Shown here one piece after another: positions 2,622 to 63,228 of a stretch of DNA of 64,000 nucleotides. Under the pieces are notes generated by a model that worked only from the letters and a program-made list of their open reading frames with translations, had not been told where the DNA came from and ran no database searches. Position 1 is the stretch's first letter; every line of letters starts with the position of its first letter. This DNA is from a virus (taxonomy: Duplodnaviria; Caudoviricetes): positions 136,364 to 200,363 of the IMG/VR virus record IMGVR_UViG_3300048672_000970; one strand, 5' to 3'. A program made the translations under genes and the position numbers.

Positions 2622-2623
2622 AG

Positions 2624-2647: not shown

Positions 2648-2654
2648 AAACATT

Positions 2655-4457: not shown

Positions 4458-4460
4458 AAC

Positions 4461-21300: not shown

Positions 21301-24300
21301 GTTCTCTTGGAATTATTCATCAATTGGTCAAGCTCGCTGGTTCGATGTTATCACGGCTTATCAATCAACTCATGGTATCAGTTATCCAACGGCTCGACCC
21401 GATCTGGCGCCGTGGCAACTACTCAACCATGCTTCTAAGCCGGCCAATTGGGATATTCAGTATAAGGCGAAGTTGACAGACTTAACTGGTTATACCAATT
21501 CAATTACTGTGTCAGCAGTTTCGTTCAGTGAAACGCCGACGAACGTTACCCGATTTGGATTACCAGTGATGGACGGAGTTCAATTGAGTAATGGCGACTA
21601 TATTCTGTTAGCGTCCGAAGCACTACCTTCCAATAATGGCATCTGGCAAGTATCTACCGGAAGTTGGACTCAAGTATCATTTGATTTCAATACCAAGCTA
21701 CTTTTCACTGTTCGATATGGCTCAGTATTTGCTAACACCATTTGGGGCAATATCACCAATCAAGAATTTGCCCAATACAGAAAGTGGTCTAACAAAATGT
21801 GGGCGGACATTAAAGCCGTTACTTCGGTCAAGTTATTTGTCAATACGGTCACTGATGAAAATTTACCTCCTTATCTGCCAGCTTCTGACCGATGGGCGAA
21901 TGAAGTTTTGACGAACGTCATTCCGACCAGTTGGCAAGATGAGTATCAATTTGGGGATAATTCGTTACTTGAATCCGTGTGGAAAAATTCTATTGATTAC
22001 AAGTATAACGAAGTAAAAGCCTATTGCAAAGTCAATCCGTTAGGATTTATTGAAAACCTGTGGGGAATCAATTACTTAATTATCGACGGCATTCGATATG
22101 ACTATAACGCACAGTCGCTGGTCAGTCTGTCCAATCTGAAAATGCACGGTGATGCTATCGATTCAACTCGCACTCATCAAGTAGTCGGCACTGTTAACAA
22201 GGATGTTAAATTAGTTAATCACACTCGGTCAGTTGGTTATCCAGAATTCTGCGTATTCGACGGAGATGTATTTGTCGGCAAACTGATTGCCAATCAAATC
22301 ACTAACGGGACAATGAATGGCGTCACGTTCACTAACTTTGGCATCAAAGATAACGGGTCTGCCTTCCAACAGGGCGACATGTTCATCATTGCTAATTCAG
22401 TTGTTTCATTTGTCCCAGCGACGACGAAACAATATATTGGTTTTGGTCAATTGTTCGCTAATGCGTTAAGAAGTATGAGCGTGGACACTAACAGAAGTTA
22501 TGCCGTATCCGCTTTCAAAAATTGGCAGACAACTATTGGCTATCGAACTGGCCGAATGATTGCGGAAAATTGCGTAGTTGAAACAGGGACGACCGTCATC
22601 CCGGAATCTGCCTACTCGCTAAAGCTGAAAAAGAATAGGGTCAGTAACTCACTCTGGATGCAAGCACTGAACGTGTCCGTCCTCTCTAACTCAGGCCCGA
22701 AAGAAAACTGGACGTATCAAATTGATGGCTTTAACCCCAATCAAACTGAATTCCAATATTATCATCTTGACCCTTCTTCAGAAGAAATTACGTTTAACGT
22801 CCTTGACACTGAATTAGTCCTCTCCCACTATTCAGAAATTGCCAATTTGGTAAAAACGACGTTTCCAACCACAATCCAAGGGCTATTACCCTTGGTTAAC
22901 GTATTGTTCGGATATTCGATGTTTTTAGAAGCAAATGGCTTCACGATGGACGACAATGACAACAAGATAGAAGCAGATAGCGGAAGATTCCGTAATTGGC
23001 AGTTAGAGATTGAAAAAATGGTATCTAATTTGGATACGGTTGGATTGAATGACCCTATTCAGATGAATCCGTTCATGGATGGATTTACGATTGAGCATGG
23101 TGATGGATTGACTGCTGAATTTGTTGACACGGACATTTTTGATGTGAAGTCGCATCCGGCCATTTTTGATTTGGTTGGGGCGAAAATCAGTGTGAGAGAT
23201 TTGTTCGTGGTCAGAACGGCGGACAAGACTGTTATCAAGTCGGAAGTACCTATCTATTCAGCTCATGTTCAGTTTGACGAGTATGAGAACATTTTCAAGT
23301 TTGAAAAGCAGATTGGCACTGATAAATTACTGTTTGATGAGTTTTCAGGTGCGCGGATTTCAACTCTAACGTTCAATGGGCGAGGTTCTGCCAATGAAAC
23401 GATGCGCCCTGAATTTGGTGGCCATTTCATCTCGGACAATGCATCGAAACTTAATTTACAGGCGTCGATTGATGCGATAGCTAACGCGTACAATCCTGAT
23501 AAGCAATTTGACCCGACCATTTCAAAACATGCTTTGGCATTACTTGGATTTTCTCAGAAAGACTACCTGAGTAACATCGGTGTCGATATGAATACGCAAC
23601 TGGCTTTCTGGCGTGGAATGATTCAGATGAAGGGAACTACTTCGTCTGTTAATGCGTTACTCAATCACAAGAATTATTCCGGCGCGAAAATTGACGAGTA
23701 TTGGGCGGTGAAGATTGCCGAGTATGGTGACGCCCGCGAAAAAACTTATCCAGAGCTGAAAGTATTTGCGGCAGATACTTATCAGCATTTTACCAAGTAT
23801 CAATTTGGTGATAATTCGTTATCAGGATTCACGTTCATCGACCCGATTGATGACAATCGATGGTTTGCTCTCCCCGATTTGAACAAAGATATGACTTTTT
23901 CATCGAAGACAACTTACTACTCGAATAACTCAGCTTCCGGATTGATTACCATTCCTTCTGGTGATTCATTCATCAATGGAACAGCTACTTATCAAAAGCT
24001 GAACGATACCACATTGAAAATTACTGGAACGGGGACAGTTAATGTCTCATCACTCAATCCAGATGTGGACAAGTATAATCCGATTAAACTGTTCAACTAT
24101 CAAGCTAATGAGCATGTCACCGATATTTGTTATTGGCATCCGAAGGCGGGTTATCATTCAGCAGCTATTTCGGCAGTGGACATTATTTCAAATACTGACC
24201 CGGCGAAATATTCTAACTTAGTGACAACGGACGTTAATGAATATTTTTCATGGAGTGATAAGGAAATTGGACGTATCTGGTTTGATACTGATAAGGTAGC

Positions 24301-26560: not shown

Positions 26561-26563
26561 AAA

Positions 26564-26609
26564 TCGACATGTAAATATGGGTTTCAAAGGCTGAAACCCA
26601 TAATGTCGA
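26564..26609 (+). promoter_or_regulatory. Late promoter (TAAATA 26572-26577) within a start-codon-sequestering hairpin
   Basis: tatgggtttca/tgaaacccata 11-bp stem plus tcgacat/atgtcga 7-bp outer stem containing ATG 26603. Confidence 0.75.
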
Positions 26610-29600
26610 ATAACACCTATATTCAAAGTCTGATTGACTACATTAATGATACCAAGCCCTTCAGGTCTAAACTATCTGAAGTGGTCGAAGAATATCATTT
26701 CACTGATGTGGTCAATGCGGCCATCACAGACAAACTTGTCCTGAAAGAAATATCTAGACCAGTATCAAAGTTCGACTATTATTCAAATGGTGTGCCTATC
26801 AGCATGCAATTACATCCTTTGAATTTGGTTGGTGATACTGGTTGGTTTTACGGCCCCGGACAAAATTCAGCCTATACTGTCGGGGTCAGTGAATCAACCG
26901 AACTGGCTAACATCCCTTTCCAATATGGCAAGAAACATTATACGTATTCGTCCGATGCGTCAATTTTTAGGCAGGGGACGTTAGCGGAAGAAGAACTGTT
27001 AGAAAATCATGATTTCCTGAACGTCAGAGGAAGCATGCAGTTTCAAATCAATCAGACGCACAATCCGGATGGGTCAGCAAACCCTCTTTATACGTTGACC
27101 GACGAAGTGAATTTGATTTCTGATGCAGCCAGTCAAAAAGCTGGTTGTATCAATTTTCTCATCGCTCTTTTTACCTATGTGCTCAATTACACACAGAACG
27201 TTTCGGTTTATTCAGCCGTCAATGCTGAACTGCATCTGCTTCTCATCGATTTAGATAACAACGTTTTGCCGACTGATTTTACCGCGTTGCAATATGCTTT
27301 CTCGTTAATTTCCGCACCTGATTTAGCTCTCATCCCCGATTTCACGTTGACTTGGTTTAACAGCCAGTTGCAAAAATCCAGCTCTGGATTATTCACGGGT
27401 ATGTATTCAAATGAAGCAGTCAAACATGCAGCTTCATACTCGTTCAATAACTATGCTGATTCAGTGATTGGTATCAGTTCAATTACTGTCCCAGCTAACA
27501 CTTTGTTAGAAGAATTTTCCCTTGTCGCTGTTTCACCCACTCAATTTCAAGTGTATGGTTCTGATTCAGGATTCCTCGGTTCATTTATAGCTGGGGCTTC
27601 TTTCACGTCCGCGAAAGTGTCATTCAATACCTCGATGGTCGGTAGTCCGACCATCGGTTATACGGTCAAATTGACGGCCAAGAATACCATCTCCATTCAC
27701 CCTGATGCCAATTTGGAAACGTGGAACATTGTCAAAATCAATCCTAAGAATTATACTCGTCCAGTGGTTGACTCGGATTCGTATGGCTATTTCACCTCTG
27801 CTAACGGAAAAAATACCATTCAGTTTTTAACTGAGACTATCAGCGGAATGATGATTTTTGAGGCGCAGTCTGCTTCCACCTTCAAAATTGAATGTGGTTC
27901 TTATCAATCAACCTTTTCTTGCAATACTCCTTTCAATGACGGTGTACTCAGTTTCACGTTCGTCAAGGGAAGTTATGATTACCAAGTAGGTGACAGGTTT
28001 TATATCGAAGTAGTCAATCCGGCTCCAGTCATTCGAGATTTCGGACTGTATTTTGGCTATGATGCATTTGGTTATGATGGCTTTGATGCCAATTCACCGG
28101 CTTGGCTCAAAAACTTGAACGTGACGAATGATTCACGATTTCCGGCCGTGTCATCAATAGATGTTAGTTTATCAGTTGTTCCAACCGCTCTATCAAAATC
28201 ATACCGGCTCGTTGCCTTACCTGACGAAACCAATCCGTATAACATCTTGCAAAAAGATGGGACGACTAATAACAAATTTGACATCACTTCCCCAGACCCT
28301 TCAATCAGTCAAGCTGTTTATGATGCAGTTGCTTTCCAAGTTAATTCACATGTCAGTTCCACCCATTCACCGGCCACTGGAACAGACATTACTTTATGGC
28401 ATGTCGCTCAATTCAGTGTGCAAGCGTTTGAAAATAATGGATGGGTTGAAAAGCAAATTGCCAATATCGGTGATACAGTTTCTATCGATGGTGTCACACT
28501 AACTATTCCCGCCAAACCCTACTTGGCGACGAAAGTTTTCTATTCACAATATTTGACCGATGATGTCAATTCATTATTCACTGAGACAGTTACTAATGGT
28601 GACATGTATTTTTTCACGGTGGACAATCAGCCAACATCCATTAAAGAATGGTACAAGAGTAGTGTCAATTTCCCTCATGTCATCATTCATGCTAAAAACA
28701 TGGGAGCAGCTATTGATGCGAAATGGACGATTACTAAGCAAAGTTCAGGATTCTTGCTCGCCGGCCTTTACACGTCTGGCAATAACGCCGGCTCACAAAT
28801 CTATGCGAAGAATTTAACCGAACTGAGTTATCAAGATTCTTATCTACATTTCACCATTGATGCCGGTAAAATTGGCATGCAAAATGGAGATAAGCTTGAG
28901 TTTGAAACGCATGCTTCACCTTTTGAGTATGCCGTTTATGGTAGTTATTCAGGATTTACCGGCTATGCCAAATTCAATGAATGGTTCTCTAACGGAAAAA
29001 TTGGATTCAAGTTAGTTCCGCCAACTATCAATCTATTCGAGAATAACACTTTGATAACCAATGGTATTTCAGCTGCTGGTCAAATTGGTGTTCAGGGAAA
29101 TAAAGTGGGGACGTATGTATTGAAAGGAATGGGGTCGAAATGGGCGCTATACCTTGGTACTCAGTTGCTGGGCATTGGTGTTAATTCCATTCAAACGACT
29201 GATATTTCAGTGACGATGCCCAATCCAACGATGGCAACCGTCATCATTCAAATTCTTTCCCCGTTTGATTTTCCTTTCGGGCACAACTCAAGTATTGTCA
29301 TTAACAAACTGCCGCAAACTGGTAATGTAGTCAATCTGAAAAAGACATCGTTTGATTATATGCAACTGGCATTTTCTGCGCCGATTACAGCCGTTACTCC
29401 ACTGATTCCTGAATCGATTGACCTTCGATTCATTGACCAAGTGCTTGTGTCAGATTTGACGAAGTATAACGTTACTAGCCCAGAATTATACTTGAACAGA
29501 AATTTCATTCCGCTAGATGTCAAACGACCCACTTATGCCAATAACCAAGTATCAACCGAAATTAACGCATTGACTGGAGAACGAATTGGTAATATCAACT

Positions 29601-30505
29601 CGAACGGGTTGTTTAGCTGGGATACTTCTTTCCACGATAGTTACCTGCCGGTCAATACGCAAATTTCTTTCCTGTACGGAAATACGGGGACGAATGAGAT
29701 GGTGAAAGTTAACATGACTGAACGCATTCATTTCTTTGTCGATGCAGGTAATTTGATTACTGATTCATTCAAAGAAGAAACTGTATCAGTCACGATGGTT
29801 GAATCGGTAGTGACGAAAGTTAAATCAACGTATGATGATGCTTTTTCGGGTATCGTCTTGGATGGTGATTTTAACGGATTCTTGCCCGGCTATTCAAATT
29901 TACCATACGATGCTGAACTATTGTCCGGTGTTGGTTATTATGACTATGGCTATGCCTTGTCAGAAAATTTCCAGAAGGCGAAAGAGCTGTTAGCAAAGCC
30001 GTCCTTGACTCAGGATGAAGAACAGCTTTTACGGGCGTTAGAAGGGGCTGTGGGCGCGTTTGTTAACGGGACGGTAGCTAACACCACCTTCGCCCAATTC
30101 GTCACCAATTTGGACATCATGCTGCCCGCCAGTCAAACGCCAAATTTCGGTATTCCGGCGTTAGGTGTTGCGATGGATTTGCAAGACAATCCGGCAGAAA
30201 CTTCGGCAACTGGTATCAATGAAGCGTTAGTGCTAGTTGATGGAACGGTGGGCATCATTTACTTGTCGAGTAAAAACGTGACTGGAAATCCATTAGGAAT
30301 AGCTTATGCGGCAATTGACAGTAACATCGTCATGCCGATAGGTGTTACGTCTGTAGAAATAAATTTCACTCAAGACATTGCTTCGCCAGTTTTTTACAAG
30401 TGTGAAGTGGGAGGGGTGGTTTCTATTTTGGTTGCGACACAGTTAAATTCACGTAAATACTCTTTGAGTGGTGTTGGCTCGAATTGTAAATTATTTGTGG
30501 GCTGA
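26603..30505 (+). CDS. Large virion structural protein (baseplate-like, 1300 aa)
   Basis: Late promoter; YINDTKPF N-terminal motif; GYDxxGYD motif; beta-rich. Confidence 0.8.
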   Translation: MSNNTYIQSLIDYINDTKPFRSKLSEVVEEYHFTDVVNAAITDKLVLKEISRPVSKFDYYSNGVPISMQLHPLNLVGDTGWFYGPGQNSAYTVGVSESTELANIPFQYGKKHYTYSSDASIFRQGTLAEEELLENHDFLNVRGSMQFQINQTHNPDGSANPLYTLTDEVNLISDAASQKAGCINFLIALFTYVLNYTQNVSVYSAVNAELHLLLIDLDNNVLPTDFTALQYAFSLISAPDLALIPDFTLTWFNSQLQKSSSGLFTGMYSNEAVKHAASYSFNNYADSVIGISSITVPANTLLEEFSLVAVSPTQFQVYGSDSGFLGSFIAGASFTSAKVSFNTSMVGSPTIGYTVKLTAKNTISIHPDANLETWNIVKINPKNYTRPVVDSDSYGYFTSANGKNTIQFLTETISGMMIFEAQSASTFKIECGSYQSTFSCNTPFNDGVLSFTFVKGSYDYQVGDRFYIEVVNPAPVIRDFGLYFGYDAFGYDGFDANSPAWLKNLNVTNDSRFPAVSSIDVSLSVVPTALSKSYRLVALPDETNPYNILQKDGTTNNKFDITSPDPSISQAVYDAVAFQVNSHVSSTHSPATGTDITLWHVAQFSVQAFENNGWVEKQIANIGDTVSIDGVTLTIPAKPYLATKVFYSQYLTDDVNSLFTETVTNGDMYFFTVDNQPTSIKEWYKSSVNFPHVIIHAKNMGAAIDAKWTITKQSSGFLLAGLYTSGNNAGSQIYAKNLTELSYQDSYLHFTIDAGKIGMQNGDKLEFETHASPFEYAVYGSYSGFTGYAKFNEWFSNGKIGFKLVPPTINLFENNTLITNGISAAGQIGVQGNKVGTYVLKGMGSKWALYLGTQLLGIGVNSIQTTDISVTMPNPTMATVIIQILSPFDFPFGHNSSIVINKLPQTGNVVNLKKTSFDYMQLAFSAPITAVTPLIPESIDLRFIDQVLVSDLTKYNVTSPELYLNRNFIPLDVKRPTYANNQVSTEINALTGERIGNINSNGLFSWDTSFHDSYLPVNTQISFLYGNTGTNEMVKVNMTERIHFFVDAGNLITDSFKEETVSVTMVESVVTKVKSTYDDAFSGIVLDGDFNGFLPGYSNLPYDAELLSGVGYYDYGYALSENFQKAKELLAKPSLTQDEEQLLRALEGAVGAFVNGTVANTTFAQFVTNLDIMLPASQTPNFGIPALGVAMDLQDNPAETSATGINEALVLVDGTVGIIYLSSKNVTGNPLGIAYAAIDSNIVMPIGVTSVEINFTQDIASPVFYKCEVGGVVSILVATQLNSRKYSLSGVGSNCKLFVG

Positions 30506-41079: not shown

Positions 41080-41113
41080 AATGGAGGTTGATAAATACTT
41101 GTCAACCTCCATT
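41080..41113 (+). promoter_or_regulatory. 12-bp hairpin with a late promoter TAAATA (41092-41097) in its loop
   Basis: aatggaggttga / tcaacctccatt followed by ttttt. Confidence 0.75.
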
Positions 41114-41120
41114 TTTCCAT

Positions 41121-43076
41121 TTGGCTCGAAACGAACAAATCAAGCGCGCAGGTACTGAATGTGAATATACACCTGAGCAAGTGCAAGAGTTGCGCAAGTG
41201 TATTACAGACCCTATCTATTTCATTACCAACTATGTCAAGGTATCACACCCCACTAAAGGGCTAGTACCTTTCGCCCTATACGAATACCAAGAGCGACTG
41301 ATTAGGCATTTGCACTCAAGTAGATTCTCGATTCTAAATCTACCTAGACAACAAGGTAAAACAATCACATCAGCCATTTATCTATTCTGGAAGTCACAGT
41401 TTACCAGTAATGGCACATTTCTCATCGCATCAAAAAACGAATCTCACGCGAAAGAGATTGCAGCCAGAATTCGAGTCGCATATGAAAATTTACCAAATTG
41501 GCTGAAAGCGGGTGTCAAACTGTATAACATGCACATGATGGAATTTGACAATGGTTCAAAAATTATCTGTGAAGCAACTACCGATAAAACCGGGCGCGGG
41601 CTTGCTATCACTTGTGTAAGTGGTGATACTGAAATCACCACTCGGCCAAAAGACTGCCCAGAATATCTGCAAGCTGGAACTACCATTCAAATCTCGCAAC
41701 TGGCGTTAGGTAACTTTCCAGATACAGACCAGCTAAAAATTGACATAGCTGAATTAGAAATTCTAACACCATCTGGTTTTGAATCTTTTGATGGCATCGT
41801 CATCACGCCTGACAAGCCGTTACTTGAAATACAATTCAATGATGGGTCACATCTGAAATGCACCCCTAATCATTTACTTTTAGTTGATGGTGTATTCAAA
41901 TCGGCTGACCTGCTAACGCCCGAAGAAAATGTTAACGGATTATATGTAATCAGCATTACTCAACTACCTGGACTACATCCGGTCTACGATTTGATAAACG
42001 TTGCTGACCACCATACTTACAAAACAAATAACGTCTATAGCCATAATTGCATCTATCTTGATGAGCTTGCATTCATCAGTAAAACCATTCAGCAAGAGAT
42101 GTGGACTTCGTTACAACCGGCTATCTCGACTGGTGGGTCAATCATTATTTCTTCTACACCTAACGGAGATACCGACCTTTTCGCTAATCTGTGGCGTGGC
42201 GCTCCAGAAAATGATTTCATGCCATTTTCTACTCATTGGAGTGACCATCCAGATAGAGGGCCAGAGTATTATGATCTGATGCTCAAACAGCTCGGCCCGG
42301 TTAAAGTCCGTCAAGAAGTTGATTGCGAATTTCTATCATCAGACGCATTGCTTATCAATTCAATCGCACTCAATAACATCCGTTCAGTAAAACCTACTTT
42401 CACTTCGTTAGGGTTCGATTTCTGGATTCCTGACAATTCAGTGAAGGGTGAAGGGACGACTTACCTTATCACTCTCGACCCGTCTACCGGTTCATTACAA
42501 GATTCATCAGTTATTGAAGTATTTGAATTCCCTTCGTTGAATCAGGTGGCTGAACTACACCTAGATGATGTTAACATCCCTTTAATCTATTCTAAACTGA
42601 AATGGATTATCAAGTATTTTGCTGTCAATGGGGCAAATGTGTTATGGACGTTTGAACGTAATGGAATTGGCGAAGCAGTTGGCGCATTACATTTCAATGA
42701 CGAGAACTTTGAGTTCCCTGGCTCTGATAACGTCTCAATCGTCTCAGATTTGGACAAGATTGGTTTATTCACTACCCCGGCTAAAAAAATTACGTTCTGT
42801 TTGCAATTGAAACAGTTGGTCGAACAAATGAACGGATTGAACATCCGTTCAGATTATCTGTTGAAAGAACTGAAAAACTTTGTCGCTGCTGGTGGAACCT
42901 ATAAAGGAAAATCTGGATATCATGATGATGCCGTGATGGCAACTGTCCTGACGATGCGATTGCTAAAATATTTGGCAGAGTACGATGAAGCTGCATTCAA
43001 CCAAGTGAACACTTACATTGATGAGGAAGCAAGTATTGACGATTCGGATGCGTGCGTTCCATTCATGATTAGTTAA
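41121..43076 (+). CDS. 17: Terminase large subunit (T4 gp17-like) containing a mini-intein
   Basis: CITDPIYF, Walker A LPRQQGKT, YLDELAF, SSTPNG, nuclease D residues (LDPS, HDDAV). TTG 41121 gives MARNEQIKRAG; TTG 41088 is the alternative start. Confidence 0.95.
   Translation: MARNEQIKRAGTECEYTPEQVQELRKCITDPIYFITNYVKVSHPTKGLVPFALYEYQERLIRHLHSSRFSILNLPRQQGKTITSAIYLFWKSQFTSNGTFLIASKNESHAKEIAARIRVAYENLPNWLKAGVKLYNMHMMEFDNGSKIICEATTDKTGRGLAITCVSGDTEITTRPKDCPEYLQAGTTIQISQLALGNFPDTDQLKIDIAELEILTPSGFESFDGIVITPDKPLLEIQFNDGSHLKCTPNHLLLVDGVFKSADLLTPEENVNGLYVISITQLPGLHPVYDLINVADHHTYKTNNVYSHNCIYLDELAFISKTIQQEMWTSLQPAISTGGSIIISSTPNGDTDLFANLWRGAPENDFMPFSTHWSDHPDRGPEYYDLMLKQLGPVKVRQEVDCEFLSSDALLINSIALNNIRSVKPTFTSLGFDFWIPDNSVKGEGTTYLITLDPSTGSLQDSSVIEVFEFPSLNQVAELHLDDVNIPLIYSKLKWIIKYFAVNGANVLWTFERNGIGEAVGALHFNDENFEFPGSDNVSIVSDLDKIGLFTTPAKKITFCLQLKQLVEQMNGLNIRSDYLLKELKNFVAAGGTYKGKSGYHDDAVMATVLTMRLLKYLAEYDEAAFNQVNTYIDEEASIDDSDACVPFMIS
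41613..42047 (+). mobile_element. Mini-intein (145 aa, no homing endonuclease) in the terminase
   Basis: Starts CVSGDT, block B CTPNHLLLV, block F VYDLINV, ends SHN followed by extein C. Removal restores GRGLAIT-CIYLDE. Confidence 0.92.
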
Positions 43077-53989: not shown

Positions 53990-54259
53990 ATGTCCTTTAA
54001 GGAACATCTGAAAAACACCAAGAGTAACACGCCGGCTCCAGCACCAGTCAAGAAGACGGATGTTGCAACTGCTGTTACAAAAATTACTGAGGCAAAGAAG
54101 CACCGGGATGCCAAAAAAGCTGAAGCTGATGATACACTCCCTGTCGTTCCTCACATGCATGAGGGTGCAGAAGGGTTTTCTGACCTTCACCGTCGTCATC
54201 TAGCGGTCATTGCTAAGAATGACCCAGACCGTATCAAGTCAATGCAAAATTGGGATTAA
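53990..54259 (+). CDS. Small low-complexity late protein
   Basis: AGGAG RBS; MSFKEHL N-terminus; K/A/P/T-rich. Confidence 0.75.
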   Translation: MSFKEHLKNTKSNTPAPAPVKKTDVATAVTKITEAKKHRDAKKAEADDTLPVVPHMHEGAEGFSDLHRRHLAVIAKNDPDRIKSMQNWD

Positions 54260-54261
54260 AC

Positions 54262-57126
54262 ATGGATCAAAATAACACTACTCCAGACAACAGCCAGGAC
54301 GAACAGGACGTTAAGCACGAAATCAAGCATTTTGATGCTAAGACCGTTGATCCGATGAGTTCGCAGCGTGTACGCATTTATAAAGCCGTTTTCGGCAACA
54401 TGCGCACTCATATGTCAGACCAAGCTTCTATCACGGGCGTTATGCTCAAGGGTAACGCCGGTACGGGTAAGACTTCGTTCGCCCGTGACCTGCAAGCGAT
54501 GCTTGGTATCGCGCTCGTCGTGATTGAAGCGCCGCACGTCACTGAAGAACACCTGCTGAACATTCCGTTCATCGTTTTCCCCGATGCAGAAGCAAAGGGT
54601 AAGACCCTGCACGACCAGCATGAGAAGGAATTGGATTATGAACTGACCCTTGCTAATTCAGTGTTGTACACGCAACTGATGCGCGGCAAGAAGCAATCTG
54701 ATGCACAACTGCTGGAAAACATTTACGAAAATCCGAAGCATGCTTCGCTGATTCCGGTGTGGGAAGCTTTTGGCGGTAAACCGAACGTTATTCCGGCACT
54801 GTTCAAGAGCATTCGGTCTAAGTTCTCTTGCCTACTTTTCATTGACGAATATTATCGCCAGCCGAAGAAGCGTATTCGCAACATTCTTCGTGGTCTGCTG
54901 AATAAGCAACTTGGTATGCATGACATGCCAGCTCACGTTTATACCCTGTATGCAACGAACGTTGATGATGAAGGCGTGACGACTGGTGATACCAACGAAA
55001 CGTTCAATTGGCACACGGTTGAAGTTCCTGAGAAGGATGAATGGTTCGCCCACATGGTTAACAAGTATGCCCATACGGGTGAACTGAAAGATGAAGTGGT
55101 GCAAAAGTTCTACAATGCGATTGAGCAAGAGCACCTATCGCATAACGACATGGACAACCTGCAAGAATCGGTTCGCTCATCTCCCCGTCGCTGGGAACAG
55201 ATTTTGGCGTATGTCAGTGCTGCCCTGCCAGTGAAGGATGCTCATGAAGCCGAGCAACTGATTAAAAACGTCCGTATTCAATTCCGGCATTATAAGACTG
55301 GTCAGTTTGGTAAGCTTGAAAGTATTGTTGCTGATGCGGTGCGTGAGCTGATTAACGAAACGTCCGGTGTTACTGCGTCGAGTGGTGGACTATCCGATGA
55401 TGACTGGCGTGAAACGCTTGACCATCAGATTAAGATGAAAATGCGCATGGGTGTAACCCGTAAGAACATTCCGGTTATTGCTGGTCTGCCGGGTGTTGGT
55501 AAGACTTCTGAACTGCAAAAGGTCGCCGATAGCAACCATATGGTACTGGTGATGATTAACTCATCTAATCTGTCCGCAGAAGAAATTATCGGTTCACCTG
55601 TCACTGAAAAGGATAAGTCGCAAGGTCTGAATGTTTCGTTCACTAAGCCACCTCTGCTCGCTTATATTGAACAGCAGATTAAGAAGAACACGGCAACTCT
55701 GATGGCTGCGATGACGCCGGAAGAACAGAAGAAATTCAAGACCCAACCTTATAACATTCTGGTATTCTTTGACGAATTTAACCGGATGAAGGACGTGAAT
55801 GCATTCAATGCACTGCGCCGAGTCGTGCTGGAAAAGTCTTTCTCGGATGAATTTGCTCTGCCAGAAAAGGCGATGATTGTCGCAGCGATTAACCCGACTG
55901 GTAAATCAGTGAACAATCTGACCAGTCATATGCAGGACGTAATTGACGTTATTCCTGTTAATGCGAATTGGCAAAAGACGACTGCGTATCTGGACAAGAT
56001 GAGCATTCCGACTGTTGACGATGACATCAAGAAGACCACGGTTGATGCTGTAAAACAACTGCTGGAAAATTTTGAGTCGAATGAAAAGCCGCGCAGTCAA
56101 CGGCCGTTTTATCCAATGCTTGCGACGGGTGTTGACCTGTTCGTTTCACCGCGCCATGTCACCACGATGGTGATGAATGCTGCTAATGCGCTTCAATTAG
56201 TTAAGGAAATGCATGCTGATGATATCGAGTCGGGTGACAAGGCTCGGCTTGAAAAAGTCAAGAACATGATGTATGATGATTTCTGCCAGCAAGTTGATGC
56301 CGTGATGACGGACGTGTACACACAGGCCGGTCTGACCAGCTCGTATGATGCGCGTAAGGGTGAACTGCATTCGTGGATTCATGCGAAGGTTAATCTTGGT
56401 GAAGACCTGTTCTATCGCAAGCCTGAAGGCGCTGATTTCAAGTCAACGTTTGAACAGTATTGGGATAACCTGTCTGATAACAAGATTGTTGAAGACGCTG
56501 ATGTTGGCAACTATTGGAACATTACCGACCCTGTGACGGCGAAGGAACAACTGTCAGCTTTCCTGCACGACAAAGTGTATGGCATGAAGGATTATCATGA
56601 TTTTGATGATATCATTGGTAAAGAAGACGTTGATGAAAATGGCGATTCACAAGAAGGTAACATCGTAGGCCCGCACGATCTGGCAATGCAAGACAAAGAA
56701 GGCGCACTGCGGAAAATGCATCATGGCAGTGTTCCTGCCGGTGCTACGCTGCGTACTAAGCCCGGTGTTGGTCGCCTGCTGAAGTTCATGCAACTGGTTC
56801 TGCTGTCAATTCATGCGCACGACATTGGTGGTGCAATGCCGCAAACTATCACTGAAACTCTGAATGGTTTCTTGGATGGTATTACTGAACAGTTTGAAAG
56901 CAAGTCTCCAGAAATGGAAGCTCTGATGGAGCGGATGAAAGATGCGCCGAATAACAACGCTGGTCAGAAAAAGTGGTTTAGAACCAAGTATGCGTCTGTT
57001 CTGAAGCAATTTGCATCTAACCATTCTGACATGATTGTTTCGTATCTTAACACCAACAAAACACTGACCGCGCACCAGCATGATGATGTTGGCGGCGCTG
57101 ACATTGGGGATGAACACCATGACTGA
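54262..57126 (+). CDS. Tandem double AAA+ ATPase (MoxR/dynein-related)
   Basis: Module 1 GNAGTGKT and LFIDEYYR; module 2 GLPGVGKT and FFDEFNR, AAINP; SPR motifs. Confidence 0.88.
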   Translation: MDQNNTTPDNSQDEQDVKHEIKHFDAKTVDPMSSQRVRIYKAVFGNMRTHMSDQASITGVMLKGNAGTGKTSFARDLQAMLGIALVVIEAPHVTEEHLLNIPFIVFPDAEAKGKTLHDQHEKELDYELTLANSVLYTQLMRGKKQSDAQLLENIYENPKHASLIPVWEAFGGKPNVIPALFKSIRSKFSCLLFIDEYYRQPKKRIRNILRGLLNKQLGMHDMPAHVYTLYATNVDDEGVTTGDTNETFNWHTVEVPEKDEWFAHMVNKYAHTGELKDEVVQKFYNAIEQEHLSHNDMDNLQESVRSSPRRWEQILAYVSAALPVKDAHEAEQLIKNVRIQFRHYKTGQFGKLESIVADAVRELINETSGVTASSGGLSDDDWRETLDHQIKMKMRMGVTRKNIPVIAGLPGVGKTSELQKVADSNHMVLVMINSSNLSAEEIIGSPVTEKDKSQGLNVSFTKPPLLAYIEQQIKKNTATLMAAMTPEEQKKFKTQPYNILVFFDEFNRMKDVNAFNALRRVVLEKSFSDEFALPEKAMIVAAINPTGKSVNNLTSHMQDVIDVIPVNANWQKTTAYLDKMSIPTVDDDIKKTTVDAVKQLLENFESNEKPRSQRPFYPMLATGVDLFVSPRHVTTMVMNAANALQLVKEMHADDIESGDKARLEKVKNMMYDDFCQQVDAVMTDVYTQAGLTSSYDARKGELHSWIHAKVNLGEDLFYRKPEGADFKSTFEQYWDNLSDNKIVEDADVGNYWNITDPVTAKEQLSAFLHDKVYGMKDYHDFDDIIGKEDVDENGDSQEGNIVGPHDLAMQDKEGALRKMHHGSVPAGATLRTKPGVGRLLKFMQLVLLSIHAHDIGGAMPQTITETLNGFLDGITEQFESKSPEMEALMERMKDAPNNNAGQKKWFRTKYASVLKQFASNHSDMIVSYLNTNKTLTAHQHDDVGGADIGDEHHD

Positions 57127-59116
57127 TGAAATCCATAAGACTTTTCGCCTGAAACAGCGGATTGTCGAGGATCTTGGAATTGCGAACAAGCGTAAGGCAA
57201 AGGGGGAAACCCCTTTCCTTGACACCAAATTCCATGACCCTCACATTCAAAAAATTGTCAATTTCCTGGTGGGGTATTACAATACCCATCCAGATGCTAC
57301 CGTTCCGGAAGATGTATTCGGTAAGATGATTCGTGCCATGCAAAATGGTGCGCCGCCGTCGATTGTTGAGACTAAGCATGTTGCCGGACAGCAAATTACG
57401 GCTAAGGATTTTGAAGACGACATTAATAACGAACTGATGGCCTTACAAGGCCGGGAAACAATTAGCCCTAAGCTGTATTCAACCGCGAAAAAGAATATGG
57501 TTGAATCTTCCCTTTTTGGTTATGTCAAGGCGGTAAAGCATGCACATATCCCGTCTGCTCCTAAATTCAAATACTCTGTATTCAAAAAGCTATGGGATAC
57601 GGTGGTATTGGAACATCCGTCTATGTTCCCTCTTAAAAATTTGGGTGATTCCAAAGTTATTCGGCCTGACAAGGTTAGCCTAATCATCACGCCGTCCACC
57701 GCCAACAAAAAATTTAATAGCATCAAAACAGCGACAGCAACTCCTAATGGTGAATTCATTTTCCATGAACCATTTTGTCAGGAGTTACTGAATTGGGGAA
57801 CACTGAAAGGCGTTCAGCCAAAGGGTAAGAAGTATTCTAATAACGGTGGTCAATTCCCGCCCGAGTATGCGTATATTGAATTTCTTATCATGCACGAAAT
57901 TTACCATTTCATGTATGGAGATTTTTACTTTAAGAACAAATACAAGTTGAAGATGAAGTTGGTTAACTATGCCGGTGATTTTAGAACTAACTATGATTTA
58001 GTTAAAGCCGGATATGAGCAAATTCCGATTGGACTCTTTTCGGACGATTTGAACCTTGACCGATTCAAATCGTATTCTGAATTGGCGGCGGCCGTTAAGG
58101 CGGAACTTGATAAATTCCCGCCCCCTCCGAAAAATAAATCGAAAGGCGCGCAATCTGATGGCGAAGAAGAAGGTGGTGAAGGTGGTGAGGGAGAGGGAGA
58201 AAATGATGACCCATTCCAGCCCCATGATTCGCACGAGCATACTGAGGATAAAACGGCCGATGGCGACAGTAAGCCGGCCGACCCATCAGAGATTGACGCG
58301 CATAATGAAGCAACTCGTGATAAAATTGAGAAGGCTGAAGCTAATCGGGTGGACAAAGAAGGCACCGGCCAAAATGCACCTGAGCGACCAAAAGTTAAAA
58401 TGACTGGTGCCCGGTCATCAAGTCGAGTTGATACAGGTACTGCGGCTTTTGATTGGAGTCAGCAGCGACCGGCATTCTCTTGGAAACAAATTGTAGACAA
58501 GTGTGCCAAGTCAGAAGTTGAAGAAGAAGAAACGATTGCTCGCCCTTCGCGGACAATTATTTCAAGACTTCACCAAGCGCGGGCGTTTGGTTCTGCAGCC
58601 ATCAAGGCCGGTATCGTTGAAGACGAAAGGAATATCAAACTGGCATTTATTGTTGACCGTTCAGGTTCTATGGGGCATGTTATCGACCAAATTACTGCCG
58701 AGATTCATAACGTCATGAAGCAGCATGGTGGTGACACAATGTATTTTGTACCCTTCTCAAATGGGGCGAAAATGTATCAGATTGCTTTCAAGGCTGGTAC
58801 TGGATTTGAAGTTGACATCAAAACTCAGGCTAAAATTGGCCCGCAACGGACGTTGCACGATATTCTGTCAAATGGTGAATTCGGCGGCACGAACTTCGAC
58901 CAAGAACTTGTCGATCTGACTAATCATCTAACAGGACAAGGGTGGAACGTTATTCTGTCTACTGACTCGGATATTCTGTACGGAGGAAATATGACTAACT
59001 TTATGAAGTACGCTCAGATTGACCACGCTTTCACGATTCTTGACAGTCGTGACACGTGGATTTCGGTTTGTAGTAAAACTTCTGCCAAACCAGATTCGGT
59101 AACGTATTTCGGATAA
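57119..59116 (+). CDS. DUF2201-like metallopeptidase domain plus VWA domain protein
   Basis: TATATPNG, FLIMHEIYH (HExxH), acidic linker, MIDAS DRSGS, GGTNF. Confidence 0.85.
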   Translation: MTDEIHKTFRLKQRIVEDLGIANKRKAKGETPFLDTKFHDPHIQKIVNFLVGYYNTHPDATVPEDVFGKMIRAMQNGAPPSIVETKHVAGQQITAKDFEDDINNELMALQGRETISPKLYSTAKKNMVESSLFGYVKAVKHAHIPSAPKFKYSVFKKLWDTVVLEHPSMFPLKNLGDSKVIRPDKVSLIITPSTANKKFNSIKTATATPNGEFIFHEPFCQELLNWGTLKGVQPKGKKYSNNGGQFPPEYAYIEFLIMHEIYHFMYGDFYFKNKYKLKMKLVNYAGDFRTNYDLVKAGYEQIPIGLFSDDLNLDRFKSYSELAAAVKAELDKFPPPPKNKSKGAQSDGEEEGGEGGEGEGENDDPFQPHDSHEHTEDKTADGDSKPADPSEIDAHNEATRDKIEKAEANRVDKEGTGQNAPERPKVKMTGARSSSRVDTGTAAFDWSQQRPAFSWKQIVDKCAKSEVEEEETIARPSRTIISRLHQARAFGSAAIKAGIVEDERNIKLAFIVDRSGSMGHVIDQITAEIHNVMKQHGGDTMYFVPFSNGAKMYQIAFKAGTGFEVDIKTQAKIGPQRTLHDILSNGEFGGTNFDQELVDLTNHLTGQGWNVILSTDSDILYGGNMTNFMKYAQIDHAFTILDSRDTWISVCSKTSAKPDSVTYFG

Positions 59117-59134
59117 AACAAAACTGCAGGGAGG

Positions 59135-59160
59135 TAAATAAGGGGCTAAAAGCCCCTTAT
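59135..59160 (+). promoter_or_regulatory. Late promoter TAAATA (59135-59140) overlapping the hairpin ataaggggct-aaa-agccccttat
   Basis: Intergenic, upstream of the nrd operon. Confidence 0.55.
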
Positions 59161-59167
59161 TTCATTT

Positions 59168-59407
59168 ATGGAAACAATACCCACTTGTTGCTTTGTCACT
59201 TCTGCCGATGTATCAAATGATATGCCATTCGTTGATAAACTTGTCGCAGATGAGTTAAATAGACGCCGGGCTAATCAGTGCGTTGAACTTTCTTTCGATG
59301 AGGTTCAAGAACTTAGAAAAACCCTGGTAAAATTCATCCTGTTGGGAAAGAACTACACGGCGGCGATGAATTTCAGAACCCAAGAAACAAAACTATTGGA
59401 AGGATAA
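59168..59407 (+). CDS. Hypothetical protein
   Basis: 79-aa ORF abutting nrdA. Confidence 0.6.
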   Translation: METIPTCCFVTSADVSNDMPFVDKLVADELNRRRANQCVELSFDEVQELRKTLVKFILLGKNYTAAMNFRTQETKLLEG

Positions 59408-59408
59408 G

Positions 59409-60869
59409 ATGAAGATTATTAAGCGAAACGGAAAGAAGGAAAAGTTTGAACTTGCCAAGTGGCAAGCACATATTGCCAAAATGTGTGAGGGGATTGAAGA
59501 TGTATCTCCGTCCATGATTGAGATTCATGCTTCCCCGCAATTTTATGATGGAATGACCACTGAAGAACTGGACGCGATTGCGCTGCGCGCCGAAGTCAAT
59601 CTGATTGATGAAACGTCGATGCCAGGAATTGCCAATGTTAATTATCAGAAAGTTGCCGGCCGGCATCTCATCACCATGCTTCGCAAGAAGGTGTACGGAG
59701 AATATGAAGTACCGCATATTCTAGAGATTGTTAAGCGTAATGTCGGCCTGAAACTATATACTGCAGAACTGCTTGATTGGTACTCTGAAGAAGAATGGGA
59801 CAGCATTAATGAAATGCTTGACCATAGCCGTGATGAGAAAATGGATTATGCGGCGGTTGACCAATTGATTGAAAAGTATCTCGTTCAAAATCGGGCGACA
59901 AAGGAAGTGTATGAAAGTCCGCAAATCCGATACATCATTTCGGCAGCGACGTTATTCCATGCTGAAAAGGAAAATCGGCTTCAATGGGTGAAGGATTATT
60001 ATGATTCATCGTCACTCGGCGAAATCACGCAATCAACACCCGTCTGTGCGGGCCTAGGAACGCCTACAAAGCAATTTTCTAGCTGCACCCTCATGAGCAT
60101 TGGCGACAGCAAAGAATCGATTTATAGGGGCGCTGAGTCGATTGCAGAGTACGCATCTAACCGAGCTGGCATCGGCATTGAAATCGGCTCTATCCGCCCG
60201 CTAGGTGCCCCTGTGAGGAACGGTGAAATCAAGCACACTGGCCTAGTTCCTTTCCTGCACAAGTGGTTCCGTGATCTGCGCGCTTTCAGTCAGGGCGGCA
60301 TTCGTAACTCATCTATGACGGTTGCCTATCCAATTTGGCATTATCAGTTTGAAGACCTTATCGTGCTGAAGAATAACCAAGGGACGGAAGAATCACGAGT
60401 TCGACACGTTGATTATGATGTTGTCATGTCTGCTTTCTTTTGGCGGCGTTATAAGAATCAAGGGCAGATTACGTTATTTGACCCGGCTGAAGTACCAGAC
60501 CTTTATAAAGCTTTTTACTCAAATCCTGAACGGTTTGAGCAACTGTATGAACAGTATGAGAAAGATTCTTCTATCAAGCGGAAAAAGACACTGCCGGCTG
60601 CTACAATTATTGACATGTTTGTCAGTGAACGCAGCGACACTGGCCGAATCTATGTCATGAATGTTGATAACGTCATTCGACAAGGTGTTTTCGATTCAGA
60701 AACTCACCCGGTTCTAACTTCTAATCTCTGTATGGAAATTCTTATTCCCGTCGTCGCATTTGCTACCTGGGTCAAGAAGGAATTTAAGGTGAAGAAAGAA
60801 GCCGCTCTCAACTTTGTACTCAACTTGCCAAAACAATACGCTAACCCTCGCATCAAGGAAAATAACTAA
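59409..60869 (+). CDS. nrdA: Ribonucleotide reductase class Ia alpha subunit, N-terminal fragment (NrdA-a)
   Basis: ATP cone (IIKRNGKKE), FSSC, QGGIRNSS, SNLCMEI active-site loop, then a ~40-aa extension and stop. Confidence 0.92.
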   Translation: MKIIKRNGKKEKFELAKWQAHIAKMCEGIEDVSPSMIEIHASPQFYDGMTTEELDAIALRAEVNLIDETSMPGIANVNYQKVAGRHLITMLRKKVYGEYEVPHILEIVKRNVGLKLYTAELLDWYSEEEWDSINEMLDHSRDEKMDYAAVDQLIEKYLVQNRATKEVYESPQIRYIISAATLFHAEKENRLQWVKDYYDSSSLGEITQSTPVCAGLGTPTKQFSSCTLMSIGDSKESIYRGAESIAEYASNRAGIGIEIGSIRPLGAPVRNGEIKHTGLVPFLHKWFRDLRAFSQGGIRNSSMTVAYPIWHYQFEDLIVLKNNQGTEESRVRHVDYDVVMSAFFWRRYKNQGQITLFDPAEVPDLYKAFYSNPERFEQLYEQYEKDSSIKRKKTLPAATIIDMFVSERSDTGRIYVMNVDNVIRQGVFDSETHPVLTSNLCMEILIPVVAFATWVKKEFKVKKEAALNFVLNLPKQYANPRIKENN

Positions 60870-61879
60870 TGGACTATACCCAAGAATACATCACGATTGA
60901 AGTTGACGAAGATACTTCCCGCACGGCTTTATGTACGCTCGCATCAGTGAACATTAGTAAGTTCAAGAATCCTGAAGACCTTCAGCGGCCTATTCGATTG
61001 CTGGTTCGCGGCCTCCATAACATCCTGCAATATCAAGATTTTCTTAACGTCGGTGCAAAACTGGCTACTGAAGAATTTGAGCCGATTGGAATCAGCATTA
61101 CCAATTTTGCTCACTGGATGGCGCAACGTGGTTTCACGTATGGTCAACCTGAAGCCCTTCAAGAGCAAAAACGATGGATGGAATATTTCGCTTATTATGC
61201 CATTCGAGCGTCGTGCGACCTAGCCAAAGAAAAGGGGCCGTGTAAGCTTTCTCACACTACGTTATATGGAAAAGGTATTTTTCCGTGGGAGCGTCGAGCA
61301 AAGGGTGTTAACGAGCTAGCCGACTTTACGCCAAATCCTGATATCCCCTGGGAAGAACTTCGCCAAGACCTGCTAAAATACGGCATTCGCAATGCACTTT
61401 GGGGCTGTCAGCCACCCGTTGAATCAAGTTCAGTGGTTGTCTCGTCTACCAACGGAATTGAGCCAACAAAGCAACTTATCACGCTGAAAGAATCTAAGGC
61501 GGGTATTGTGCCGGTGGTCGTGCCAGACTATAAAACCCTTGCTGATAAGTATCAAAATCTTTGGGATATTGACCCACTTGATTATCTGAAGCATGTGGCG
61601 GTTTTCCAAGTGTATTATGACCAGAGTCTATCTGCCAATACTTGCTACAATCCGGCGCATTATTACACTGATGACCCGGAAACGGATGGCAAGATTCCTA
61701 AGACGAAAGTTATCTCGGATATGATGCAATTTCATATTTGGGGCGGAAAGACGATGTATTACCATCTCATTAACAAATCAGCCATTCGTAAGCGCCTCGA
61801 TTCAAATCCAGAGACGCCCATTCCGGTAGAAAATCTACTACTGGAAGAAGAATCAGACTGCGAAGCCTGCAAACTATAA
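60869..61879 (+). CDS. nrdA: Ribonucleotide reductase class Ia alpha subunit, C-terminal fragment (NrdA-b)
   Basis: ALCTLASVN, YGIRNA, PVESSS..STNGIEP, DQSLSAN, TMYY, terminal CEACKL; own AAGGA RBS; TAATG overlap. Confidence 0.92.
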   Translation: MDYTQEYITIEVDEDTSRTALCTLASVNISKFKNPEDLQRPIRLLVRGLHNILQYQDFLNVGAKLATEEFEPIGISITNFAHWMAQRGFTYGQPEALQEQKRWMEYFAYYAIRASCDLAKEKGPCKLSHTTLYGKGIFPWERRAKGVNELADFTPNPDIPWEELRQDLLKYGIRNALWGCQPPVESSSVVVSSTNGIEPTKQLITLKESKAGIVPVVVPDYKTLADKYQNLWDIDPLDYLKHVAVFQVYYDQSLSANTCYNPAHYYTDDPETDGKIPKTKVISDMMQFHIWGGKTMYYHLINKSAIRKRLDSNPETPIPVENLLLEEESDCEACKL

Positions 61880-61890
61880 GGAACAAGAAC

Positions 61891-62979
61891 ATGTCACTAA
61901 ACTATGATTTTTCAAAGCAACCGAATTATCTGAAGCGTAACATGTTCCTTGATGGAGCAGTTACTGTTCAACGGTATGAGGATTATGCATTCCCTCGTAT
62001 TGCGCAGTTTGACGAAGCCCAGCAAGGAGCATTTTGGCGCCCACAAGAAATCAGTCTGATGAAAGACAAGCATGATTTCAAGGAAGCTAACGAAGCTGAA
62101 CGCCATGCATTCACCAGTAACATCCTTCGCCAAACGGCATTAGATTCCGCACAAGCTAAATCACCTTCCGCTTGTTTTCTGCCTGTTTGCTCGGTTCCTG
62201 AACTAGAATCACTGATGTTCACTTGGAGTTTCTTTGAAACTATCCATTCACGTAGTTATTCTCATATCATCAAAAACATTTACAATGTACCCAAAGCTGA
62301 ATTTAACAAGATTCACGATACTCAAGACATTGTTAGTATGGCGGCAAACATCGGTAAATACTACGATGATTTGTATAGGCTGAACTGTCAAGTTGAGCTT
62401 GGGCAAAGTGTTTCTGAAGAAGCGCACATTAAAGCCATTTGGCTTGCGATGATTGCTTCGTTCGGTCTGGAAGCTATTCGATTTATGATTTCGTTCGCCA
62501 CCTCTTTTGGTATGGTCGAGAATAAAAAGTTTATCGGGAATGGTTCTATCATTTCGCTTATCGCTCAAGATGAAACTTATCACACAGATTGGACAGCATA
62601 CATCATCAACACTTTACGCCGGAAAGATAAGCGATTTACCGAAATCGCTGAATCATGTAAGGAAGAAGCACAATATATCCTAGATGAAGTTGTACGCGAA
62701 GAAAAAGATTGGGCAAAGTATCTATTCAAGAAGGGGCCGGTTGTCGGCCTGAATGAAACCATTATGCAAAATTTTGCTGAAGCAAATGCTGCCACTCAAT
62801 ATGCCCGAATTGGTATGAAGTATCCGACTAAGCATACCATCGCCTCAACTCTCCCTTGGTATCCTAGACACCTGCAAACCGAGCGTAAGCAAACGGCTCT
62901 CCAAGAAAACGAGAGTCAAGTCTACATTATCGGAGCGATGACGACTGATGTAGATTTTTCTAAACTCCCTAACCTATAA
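61891..62979 (+). CDS. nrdB: Ribonucleotide reductase class Ia beta subunit
   Basis: FWRPQEI, ETIHSRSYSH, LEAIRF, QDETYH, ALQENE. Confidence 0.95.
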   Translation: MSLNYDFSKQPNYLKRNMFLDGAVTVQRYEDYAFPRIAQFDEAQQGAFWRPQEISLMKDKHDFKEANEAERHAFTSNILRQTALDSAQAKSPSACFLPVCSVPELESLMFTWSFFETIHSRSYSHIIKNIYNVPKAEFNKIHDTQDIVSMAANIGKYYDDLYRLNCQVELGQSVSEEAHIKAIWLAMIASFGLEAIRFMISFATSFGMVENKKFIGNGSIISLIAQDETYHTDWTAYIINTLRRKDKRFTEIAESCKEEAQYILDEVVREEKDWAKYLFKKGPVVGLNETIMQNFAEANAATQYARIGMKYPTKHTIASTLPWYPRHLQTERKQTALQENESQVYIIGAMTTDVDFSKLPNL

Positions 62980-62988
62980 GGAAAAAAG

Positions 62989-63228
62989 ATGATTACTGTA
63001 TTTGGAAAGGACGGTTGCGTCCAATGTGACCAAGCTGTCAAGCTACTTCAATCAGCCGCCGTTGATTACAAGTATGTGAAGGTGCTGTATCCCGGAAATA
63101 GTTATGCAGGCGATTCTGTCCAACTGGAAGATTTCAAACAGCAATATCCGACAGTTCGGGCAATGCCTTTCATCATGCGGGGGGATTCGGTGATTGGCGG
63201 TCTTGCTGATTTACGGAAGGTGATTTGA
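62989..63228 (+). CDS. Glutaredoxin (NrdC/NrdH-like)
   Basis: CVQC active site, RAMPFI, IGG; follows nrdB. Confidence 0.88.
   Translation: MITVFGKDGCVQCDQAVKLLQSAAVDYKYVKVLYPGNSYAGDSVQLEDFKQQYPTVRAMPFIMRGDSVIGGLADLRKVI

Follow-up and report, generated by a model that had tools for sequence, protein, structure and literature searches.

The closest described counterpart of the split ribonucleotide reductase (RNR) gene studied here is the 'genes-in-pieces' RNR of Aeromonas phage Aeh1 (Friedrich et al. 2007, as cited in PMC3045599; Crona et al. 2011, PMC3045599), in which the large-subunit gene is arranged as nrdA-a, the homing endonuclease gene mobE and nrdA-b. The two Aeh1 halves carry terminal tails, basic on NrdA-a and acidic on NrdA-b, and these tails are essential for the assembly of the (ab)2 form and for activity (Crona et al. 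2011, PMC3045599). Crona et al. found no database matches for the tails at that time and raised the possibility that they originated in a degenerate split intein (PMC3045599). Further MobE-split nrdA genes are mentioned as unpublished in bioRxiv 10.1101/2022.08.31.505936, where the T4 gp39/gp60 topoisomerase with mobA is given as a case in which the split and the extensions were kept after endonuclease loss. Fractured genes with split inteins and a free-standing endonuclease were described by Dassa et al. (2009, PMC2677866; here as discussed in PMC3045599), and PMC3653736 cites Thermus phage phiYS40 for nrdJ-a and nrdJ-b, two adjacent open reading frames (ORFs) with a 12-nucleotide (nt) spacer and no mobile element. 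We analysed a split nrdA in a 64,000-nt stretch of DNA from a virus of the Caudoviricetes (IMG/VR record IMGVR_UViG_3300048672_000970), which we refer to as the window. It is the last 64 kb of a 200,363-bp viral contig with an estimated completeness of ∼56%, and the sequencing runs that contain window sequence are freshwater metagenomes. Here the two halves of nrdA overlap and no gene lies between them. We consider this locus to be probably the endonuclease-free end state of an Aeh1-type cassette, that is, a two-chain class Ia alpha subunit whose split is most likely the scar of endonuclease loss.

Anatomy of the two-piece reductase

All coordinates are window positions and all features lie on the plus strand. 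Based on the ORF list, Pfam and the match to E. coli R1, nrdA-a (59409..60869; 486 amino acids, aa) encodes the ATP-cone, the all-alpha domain, the first half of the RNR barrel and a C-terminal tail, and nrdA-b (60869..61879; 336 aa) encodes an N-terminal tail and the second barrel half. The stop codon TAA of nrdA-a occupies positions 60867-60869 and the start codon ATG of nrdA-b positions 60869-60871. The two genes overlap by 1 nt in the motif TAATG (60867..60871), and nrdA-b is read in the -1 frame. A Shine-Dalgarno sequence for nrdA-b, AAGGA, is located inside the final codons of nrdA-a (60855..60859), 9 nt 5' of the ATG, and the same motif is also found upstream of nrdA-a and of nrdB. The TAATG overlap is an arrangement typical of translational coupling and we infer that the two halves may be translated in this coupled manner. 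The small-subunit gene nrdB (61891..62979; PF00268) follows 12 nt 3' of nrdA-b with no endonuclease gene between them, and after another 10 nt a glutaredoxin-like reductant gene (62989..63228; PF00462) ends the nrd cluster. This gene order is common to the window, the related metagenomic loci L005 and L051, Stenotrophomonas phage Moby and Xanthomonas phage X1.

The Pfam families PF03477, PF00317 and PF02867 all scored above their cut-offs across the two ORFs. PF02867 is divided between them, with positions 1-218 corresponding to NrdA-a residues 224-447 and positions 219-523 to NrdA-b residues 14-299. In the comparison with E. coli R1 (4r1r), NrdA-a 3-448 aligned to residues 7-446 (E=1e-115) and NrdA-b 11-301 to residues 451-734 (E=1e-52), and nothing is missing from the R1 fold once both halves are mapped onto the structure. 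NrdA-a contains FSSC, with C226 corresponding to E. coli C225, and SNLCMEI, with N439, C441 and E443 corresponding to N437, C439 and E441. NrdA-b contains ALCTL, with C22 corresponding to C462, and MYYH, with Y297 and Y298 corresponding to Y730 and Y731, and carries the CxxC motif as CEAC at its C-terminus. The break falls within the loop that joins E. coli R1 residues 446 and 451 and places C439 and C462 on different chains. The domains, the catalytic and radical-path residues and the neighbouring nrdB are those of a class Ia alpha subunit. What is absent is the single alpha polypeptide of that class, as we find two ORFs in different frames and see them in independent assemblies. The window system is a real, conserved two-piece class Ia RNR and very probably a working enzyme.

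For the complex of NrdA-a and NrdA-b the structure prediction gave an interaction prediction score from aligned errors (ipSAE) of 0.91 (three runs, 0.91-0.92; best control 0.00), which shows a likeness to known structures rather than proof of binding because the two chains are halves of a fold that was solved as a single chain. The mark used for this score was reached by 58 of 80 solved complexes and by 2 of 110 mismatched pairs. At least 85% of the contacts were common to the runs, and the partner had a predicted local distance difference test (pLDDT) value of at least 87. The predicted interface includes residues a441-452, a454-463, a466 and b5-28 and hence the proximal part of both tails. 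We regard a reassembly of the halves, with both tails placed at the interface, as very probable, and from the homology to Aeh1 one would expect the tails to stabilise both the (ab)2 form and the binding of NrdB by this form.

The nearest cultured relatives of the window NrdA are found in phage Moby and its kin, Ralstonia phage RSP15 and the Xanthomonas phages X1 and BUDD, with ∼45-55% aa identity. In all of them nrdA is continuous, and 14 residues separate the proline of the EILxP motif from ALCTL. A megablast search of the locus against cultured phages returned no match. Relative to its closest intact counterparts (Moby, RSP15, X1), nrdA of the window contains ∼134 additional bases (60768-60901), which encode the 33 C-terminal residues of NrdA-a, the stop/start overlap and the 11 N-terminal residues of NrdA-b. 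Because these extra bases align as an insert, the window differs from an intact nrdA by an insertion and not by a one-base frameshift.

The junction itself was observed in independent data. A Logan contig from a 2018 freshwater study, which is a different study from that of the probable source sample, bridges positions 60636-60936 with 1 mismatch and 0 gaps; the runs compared consist of assembled Logan contigs, in which minor variants of the junction may not show. Locus L005 (run SRR32481707) is 86% identical at the nucleotide level over 3.1 kb and has the same TAATG and no indel. A further relative, L095, whose NrdA-b belongs to a lineage with 75% aa identity, is likewise split without an endonuclease gene. 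The Shine-Dalgarno sequence within the I-K-E/D codons is kept in the window, L005 and L095, and L005 retains AAGGA despite an amino-acid change at that codon. Only one stop codon separates L095 from a fused gene.

We also compared the ratio of non-synonymous to synonymous substitution rates (dN/dS) between the window and L005, which are separated by a dS of ∼0.5-1. For the A-tail dN/dS was 0.087 (10 synonymous and 6 non-synonymous changes), for the B-tail it was 0.018, and for the cores and nrdB the values were between 0.02 and 0.06. These low ratios show that each tail is read in its annotated frame and is constrained. An earlier note on this DNA, made from the letters alone, had placed two nrdA ORFs exactly at the positions given above with no intervening element, had recorded the TAATG overlap and a separate AAGGA for nrdA-b, and had assigned SNLCMEI to NrdA-a and ALCTL, the YY pair and the terminal CxxC to NrdA-b. 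These assignments are borne out by the sequence and by the mapping to E. coli R1. Its argument that the split is not a simple frameshift error is reinforced by the 134-nt insert, the junction bridged without an indel in an independent freshwater run, the split relatives and the purifying selection, and its suggestion that the extensions may dock the halves agrees with the predicted complex, in which tail residues take part in the interface.

Homology of the tails and decay of the endonuclease gene

The A-tail (60768..60866) was delimited by the alignment with intact relatives and by tail homology. It comprises 33 extra residues (a454-486), has a net charge of +5 and contains the conserved motif FKVKK. 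The B-tail (60869..60901) consists of 11 extra N-terminal residues that are acidic and rich in Tyr and continue into the acidic native loop, and it is similar to the B-tails of Aeh1 and L051. FKVKK also occurs in the NrdA-a tail of Aeh1, where its distance from the catalytic loop is the same, and the NrdA-b tail of Aeh1 and the window B-tail have in common an acidic EY..(I/V)E(I/V)D pattern. The net charge of the B-tail is -5, counted on the first 19 residues (the 11-residue tail and the start of the native loop), and the Aeh1 tails have net charges of +6 (A) and -10 (B). Both the basic A-tail and the acidic B-tail of an Aeh1-type split nrdA cassette are thus present in homologous form.

To score the A-tail we used a hidden Markov model (HMM) built from 18 tails of the endonuclease-associated metagenomic family, most of which flank an endonuclease gene and none of which comes from the window lineage. 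The window A-tail reached 15.7 bits, a score attained by 0 of 20000 composition-preserving shuffles. When the two tails were joined, the comparison of the window with Aeh1 gave p=0.0004, with L094 p=0.0002, with L007 p=0.0008 and with L051 p=0.0002; the B-tails of the window and Aeh1 alone gave p=0.005. The break positions in the window and in the members of the tail family agree to ∼3 residues. Within this family the window belongs to the subtype NLPxxxxxP[RK], common to L095, L094 and L051. By sequence comparison, the extensions are homologues of the Aeh1 tails and of a large metagenomic family of split-nrdA tails and hence not novel, contrary to the earlier note. Its comparison with the split region of Aeh1 was well placed, since the alignment shows the same loop and breaks within ∼3 residues of each other.

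Searches with NrdA-b recovered numerous NrdA-b proteins that stand alone, are ∼335-345 aa in length and are encoded on long viral contigs, and the loci of these proteins encode NrdA-a proteins of 487-490 aa with related basic tails. Searches for the A-tail itself gave few matches. In a word-indexed protein search the A-tail alone found only the window's own protein, and a profile of the A-tail region run against 1.84 billion cluster representatives gave 14 matches, mostly short fragments, which add tail variants and do not amount to a census. The small number of profile matches is probably due to full-length NrdA-a proteins being hidden inside clusters. A degenerate DNA pattern for the window-type tail motif had no match in IMG/VR, and in the metagenome contigs of the Joint Genome Institute (JGI) it gave 7 chance matches, none of them in nrdA.

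The related family shows how the endonuclease gene is lost. When IMG/VR was scanned with a pattern for the long acidic B-tail, 49 nrdA-b loci were identified, 40 of them with both halves. At 32 of these 40 loci the gap holds an endonuclease-like ORF of 243-274 aa, at 3 a remnant is left (gaps of 216-597 nt) and at 5 the gap is only 7-45 nt long. One A-tail subtype spans all stages of the decay, and in the short gaps the ends of the longer gaps are preserved. The halves of L007 are separated by an endonuclease-like ORF of 241 aa and an ORF of 87 aa; the former has a match to PHROG 2081, and the C-terminal parts of this ORF and of MobE are alike. Of the L007 endonuclease ORF, the last ∼35 residues are still encoded in the 127-nt gap of L006. 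In a tree of the NrdA core from which the tails had been removed, the tail-bearing alleles occur at 5 separate places among intact alleles. L006 and L007 are 84% and 85% identical to intact genes and are nested in well-supported intact clades. Such a distribution, together with the decay series, is what one would expect of a cassette that homes into the conserved loop and later decays and loses its endonuclease gene, with the tails and the split being retained.

Several other mobile elements were encountered in these nrd genes. An HNH homing endonuclease gene is located between nrdA-b and nrdB in L007 (7053-7727), L065 (3119-3814) and L069 (4222-4989); it belongs to PHROG 655, has a MobE-like N-terminus and occupies the usual position of T4 mobE. 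L069 (1062-4170; proteins P0015, P0083 and P0127) shows a different kind of split at the same nrdA loop. NrdA-a of this type continues into a Hint-like extension (EFKLTLDNG...), NrdA-b begins with a basic head (MKI[IV]KKECTR.VPK) and ∼1.1 kb separate the halves, which may represent a degenerate split-intein 'fractured gene'. The NrdA-a fragment P0133 (502 aa) has intein-like sequence before SQGGIRN, an intein at the catalytic Cys and a cassette-type basic tail at its end, i.e. several mobile elements stacked in a single gene.

Competing histories of the split

In the history that we favour, a mobile cassette consisting of the A-tail, a homing endonuclease gene and the B-tail would have invaded a phage nrdA in the loop between the SNLCxEI and ALCTL motifs. 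The endonuclease gene would then have been deleted completely in the window lineage while the gene remained in pieces, and the 134-nt insert would be the footprint of the cassette. The two halves would rebuild the ten-stranded barrel; C439 would then belong to one chain, and the other would contribute C462, the radical path through Y730/Y731 and the CxxC at the C-terminus. The window gap of -1 would represent the extreme end of the series that runs from endonuclease gene to remnant to empty gap. We regard endonuclease loss as the best-supported history because among the relatives with homologous tails there are loci with a complete endonuclease gene, loci with decayed remnants and loci with empty gaps. 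The earlier note had proposed a split RNR that persisted after loss of the endonuclease, and this part of it stands through the decay series in the relatives; it had not considered that a fused allele might have been split secondarily.

A number of observations weigh against endonuclease loss in this particular lineage. With the ORFs overlapping by 1 nt, the homing endonuclease gene of an Aeh1-type cassette is missing from between the window halves, and neither an endonuclease gene nor a remnant was found in the window sub-lineage (window, L005, L095, L094, L051). We infer the past possession of the gene from more distant tail homologues, since the sub-lineage itself shows none. The 200-kb contig as a whole also yielded no homologue of either Aeh1 MobE or the L007 endonuclease, which at a completeness of ∼56% is not evidence of absence. 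The window B-tail is short, with 11 aa compared to 17-30 aa in the endonuclease-bearing forms. In L095 (100-175) the halves lie in the same frame and are parted only by TAA-CAT-TTG behind AAGGAG, and in L051 (3037-5517) nrdA is a single ORF of 826 aa with an in-frame loop insertion of 40 residues (at about 4400-4555). The GC content of the window insert is low (39.6% versus 45.3%), which is too weak as a sign of foreign origin as it is confounded by lysine codons and could merely reflect them.

The L051 insertion matches the window A-tail followed by the window B-tail. The closest relative of L051, L025 (71% identity), has no insertion, and because of this we consider the fused state of L051 to be derived. 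In-frame insertions of ∼40-55 residues at the same nrdA loop also occur in 57 records of Acinetobacter T4-like phages and in Vibrio phage vB_VmeM-32; examples are Acinetobacter phage ZZ1 (L092, nrdA 1205-3616) and vB_VmeM-32 (L093, nrdA 1214-3592), where the gene is annotated as an ordinary nrdA. The insertions of ZZ1 and vB_VmeM-32 gave p=0.003-0.02 against the tails of L051 or L094 and no significant similarity to those of Aeh1 or the window, and the homology of these loop insertions to the tails is moderately supported by the sequences. The AlphaFold2 model of fused L051 was poor (mean pLDDT 67, insertion below 50) and uninformative on the fold of the tails.

These alleles suggest a history in which an inherited in-frame scar or an older loop insertion of the L051 kind was later cut by a nonsense or frameshift mutation in the linker. 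The codon pair AAG-GAx would have provided a ready-made ribosome-binding site, and an endonuclease gene would never have lain between these halves. The match of the L051 insertion to both window tails (p=0.0002), the single in-frame TAA that separates L095 from a fused ORF, the in-frame insertions of the Acinetobacter phages and vB_VmeM-32 and the lack of an endonuclease remnant in the window sub-lineage all argue for such a secondary fission. However, the better-sampled sister family shows the direction from endonuclease gene to remnant to empty gap, the fused state of L051 is derived, and the homology of the ZZ1 and vB_VmeM-32 insertions to the tails has only moderate backing. The window break is also within ∼3 residues of that in all endonuclease-bearing forms, though this is weak evidence because the linker is short. 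On balance we consider secondary fission the main rival, unlikely but by no means negligible. A de novo fission of an ordinary nrdA, with extensions arising on the spot, was the other explanation offered by the earlier note and would fit the lack of an intervening element and the intact genes of the closest cultured relatives. It is contradicted by the tails. Their homology to those of Aeh1 and the metagenomic split family, with the same break, order and charge pattern, leads us to set it aside as very improbable.

The remaining explanations concern the reality of the split. Phage nrd genes often carry introns and inteins, T4 gene 60 exemplifies ribosomal bypassing, and the position of nrdA-b in the -1 frame raises the question of whether frameshifting, bypassing or splicing yields one polypeptide. 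A search of positions 59000-62300 against Rfam gave no match, the insert forms no stable RNA fold and is outdone in stability by its shuffled versions (z=+2.2), a TAA lies two codons 5' of the ATG in the nrdA-b frame and there is no slippery heptamer. For these reasons we reject the intron, bypass and frameshift readings. In addition, 134 nt are too short for a group I or group II intron, and an intein is incompatible with the stop codon. Each of the tails evolves as a coding sequence in its own frame, and the L095 junction has a different frame relation in which the ribosome-binding site is nevertheless kept. A single polypeptide formed by recoding or splicing is highly unlikely in our view. 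An artefact of sequencing or assembly might be suspected as the source is a metagenome-assembled contig and an overlap of 1 nt resembles a frameshift, and the gene might equally be a decaying pseudogene. Independent assemblies concur on the junction, the difference from intact genes is a 134-nt insert rather than an indel, the cores, the tails and nrdB are all under strong purifying selection, and no catalytic residue has been lost. We therefore give this explanation almost no weight.

Endonuclease loss thus remains the history that we prefer for the window. A broader interpretation, which we put forward tentatively, is that the tails were not formed at the insertion of mobE and may instead make up an old, portable module, one half each, which passes between very different phage nrdA genes. 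The module would occur in three states that can change into one another: split and with an endonuclease gene, split but lacking this gene as in the window, and fused in frame as in L051 and probably in the Acinetobacter T4-like phages. Scar alleles would persist owing to the difficulty of a precise reversal and because, with the target site disrupted, they should be protected from re-invasion. The homing endonuclease would in this way drive a cycle of fission and re-fusion that leaves a new structural element in an essential enzyme.

Neighbouring genes and comparison with known systems

Outside the nrd cluster we observed several unusual ORFs in the window. Directly 5' of the cluster (54250-59116) an AAA+ ATPase of 958 aa is encoded, which has weak matches of a CobS-like or clamp-loader-like kind, and the gene for a 678-aa protein with a DUF2201 putative metallopeptidase domain overlaps the ATPase gene. 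The large terminase subunit (41088-43076; 662 aa) matches terminase profiles in separate stretches, ∼14-177 and 311-645, and the ∼130 unmatched residues between them may be an insertion. Two very large ORFs of 2738 aa and 1300 aa lie at positions 18344-30505, the 1300-aa ORF having no PHROG match.

The split reductase of Aeh1 was previously treated as a near-unique curiosity with unmatched tails (PMC3045599). We now find the same tails in an unrelated phage from freshwater that has nothing between the halves, and they recur in dozens of metagenomic phages, which cover all stages of endonuclease decay, as well as in at least one fused single-ORF form. The distance between the window and L005 (dS ∼0.5-1) indicates that an essential active site can stay split over a long evolutionary time in the absence of the selfish element to which the split is most likely due. 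The comparison also shows that the rescue tails move together with this element and that a homing endonuclease, when lost, can leave behind a permanently altered protein architecture. The tails also offer compact natural peptide pairs for the assembly of split proteins. If the weaker homology holds, the fused alleles of cultured Acinetobacter phages would open the way to experiments.

Among the described systems, the nrdJ-a/nrdJ-b genes of phiYS40 resemble the window in that the catalytic subunit of a phage RNR is encoded by two adjacent ORFs. The phiYS40 enzyme belongs to class II and is not known to have any homology to the tails. The fractured genes of Dassa et al. and the window have in common a phage or metagenomic RNR that is cut in two and carries short extensions, and charge complementarity has been proposed to drive the association (as discussed in PMC3045599). 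Unlike split inteins, the window tails lack intein catalytic residues, with no Cys or Ser at +1 and no terminal HN, and the Aeh1 halves, too, stay separate polypeptides. In T4 gp39/gp60 an endonuclease cassette also adds C- and N-terminal extensions to the two halves, as it would in the window. There, however, the enzyme and the cassette are different ones and ribosomal bypassing is involved.

The metagenomic split-nrdA family (L007, L065 and 32 IMG/VR loci) has the same break and homologous tails, and some of its members have lost the endonuclease gene and retain gaps of 7-45 nt. Its B-tails are long and acidic (∼25-30 aa) and its ORFs are separate and do not overlap, whereas the window has a different tail subtype. 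With Aeh1 the window has in common the break in the loop between C439 and C462, the nrdB gene that follows, the separate translation of the halves, a homologous basic C-terminal tail on NrdA-a with an identical FKVKK and a homologous acidic, Tyr-rich N-terminal tail on NrdA-b. Unlike Aeh1, the window has neither mobE nor any other gene between the halves, and the ORFs overlap by one base. The window B-tail comprises 11 aa compared to the ∼17 removed in the published tail deletion of Aeh1 NrdA-b. The NrdA core is ∼37% identical to that of Aeh1, and by its nearest NrdA relatives the window phage is not T4-like. For Aeh1 there is biochemistry (PMC3045599), while the window system is known here from sequence and model. 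The main value of the locus lies in this comparative picture, with tails that are both homologous and widespread, with a series of decay stages and with a fused form.

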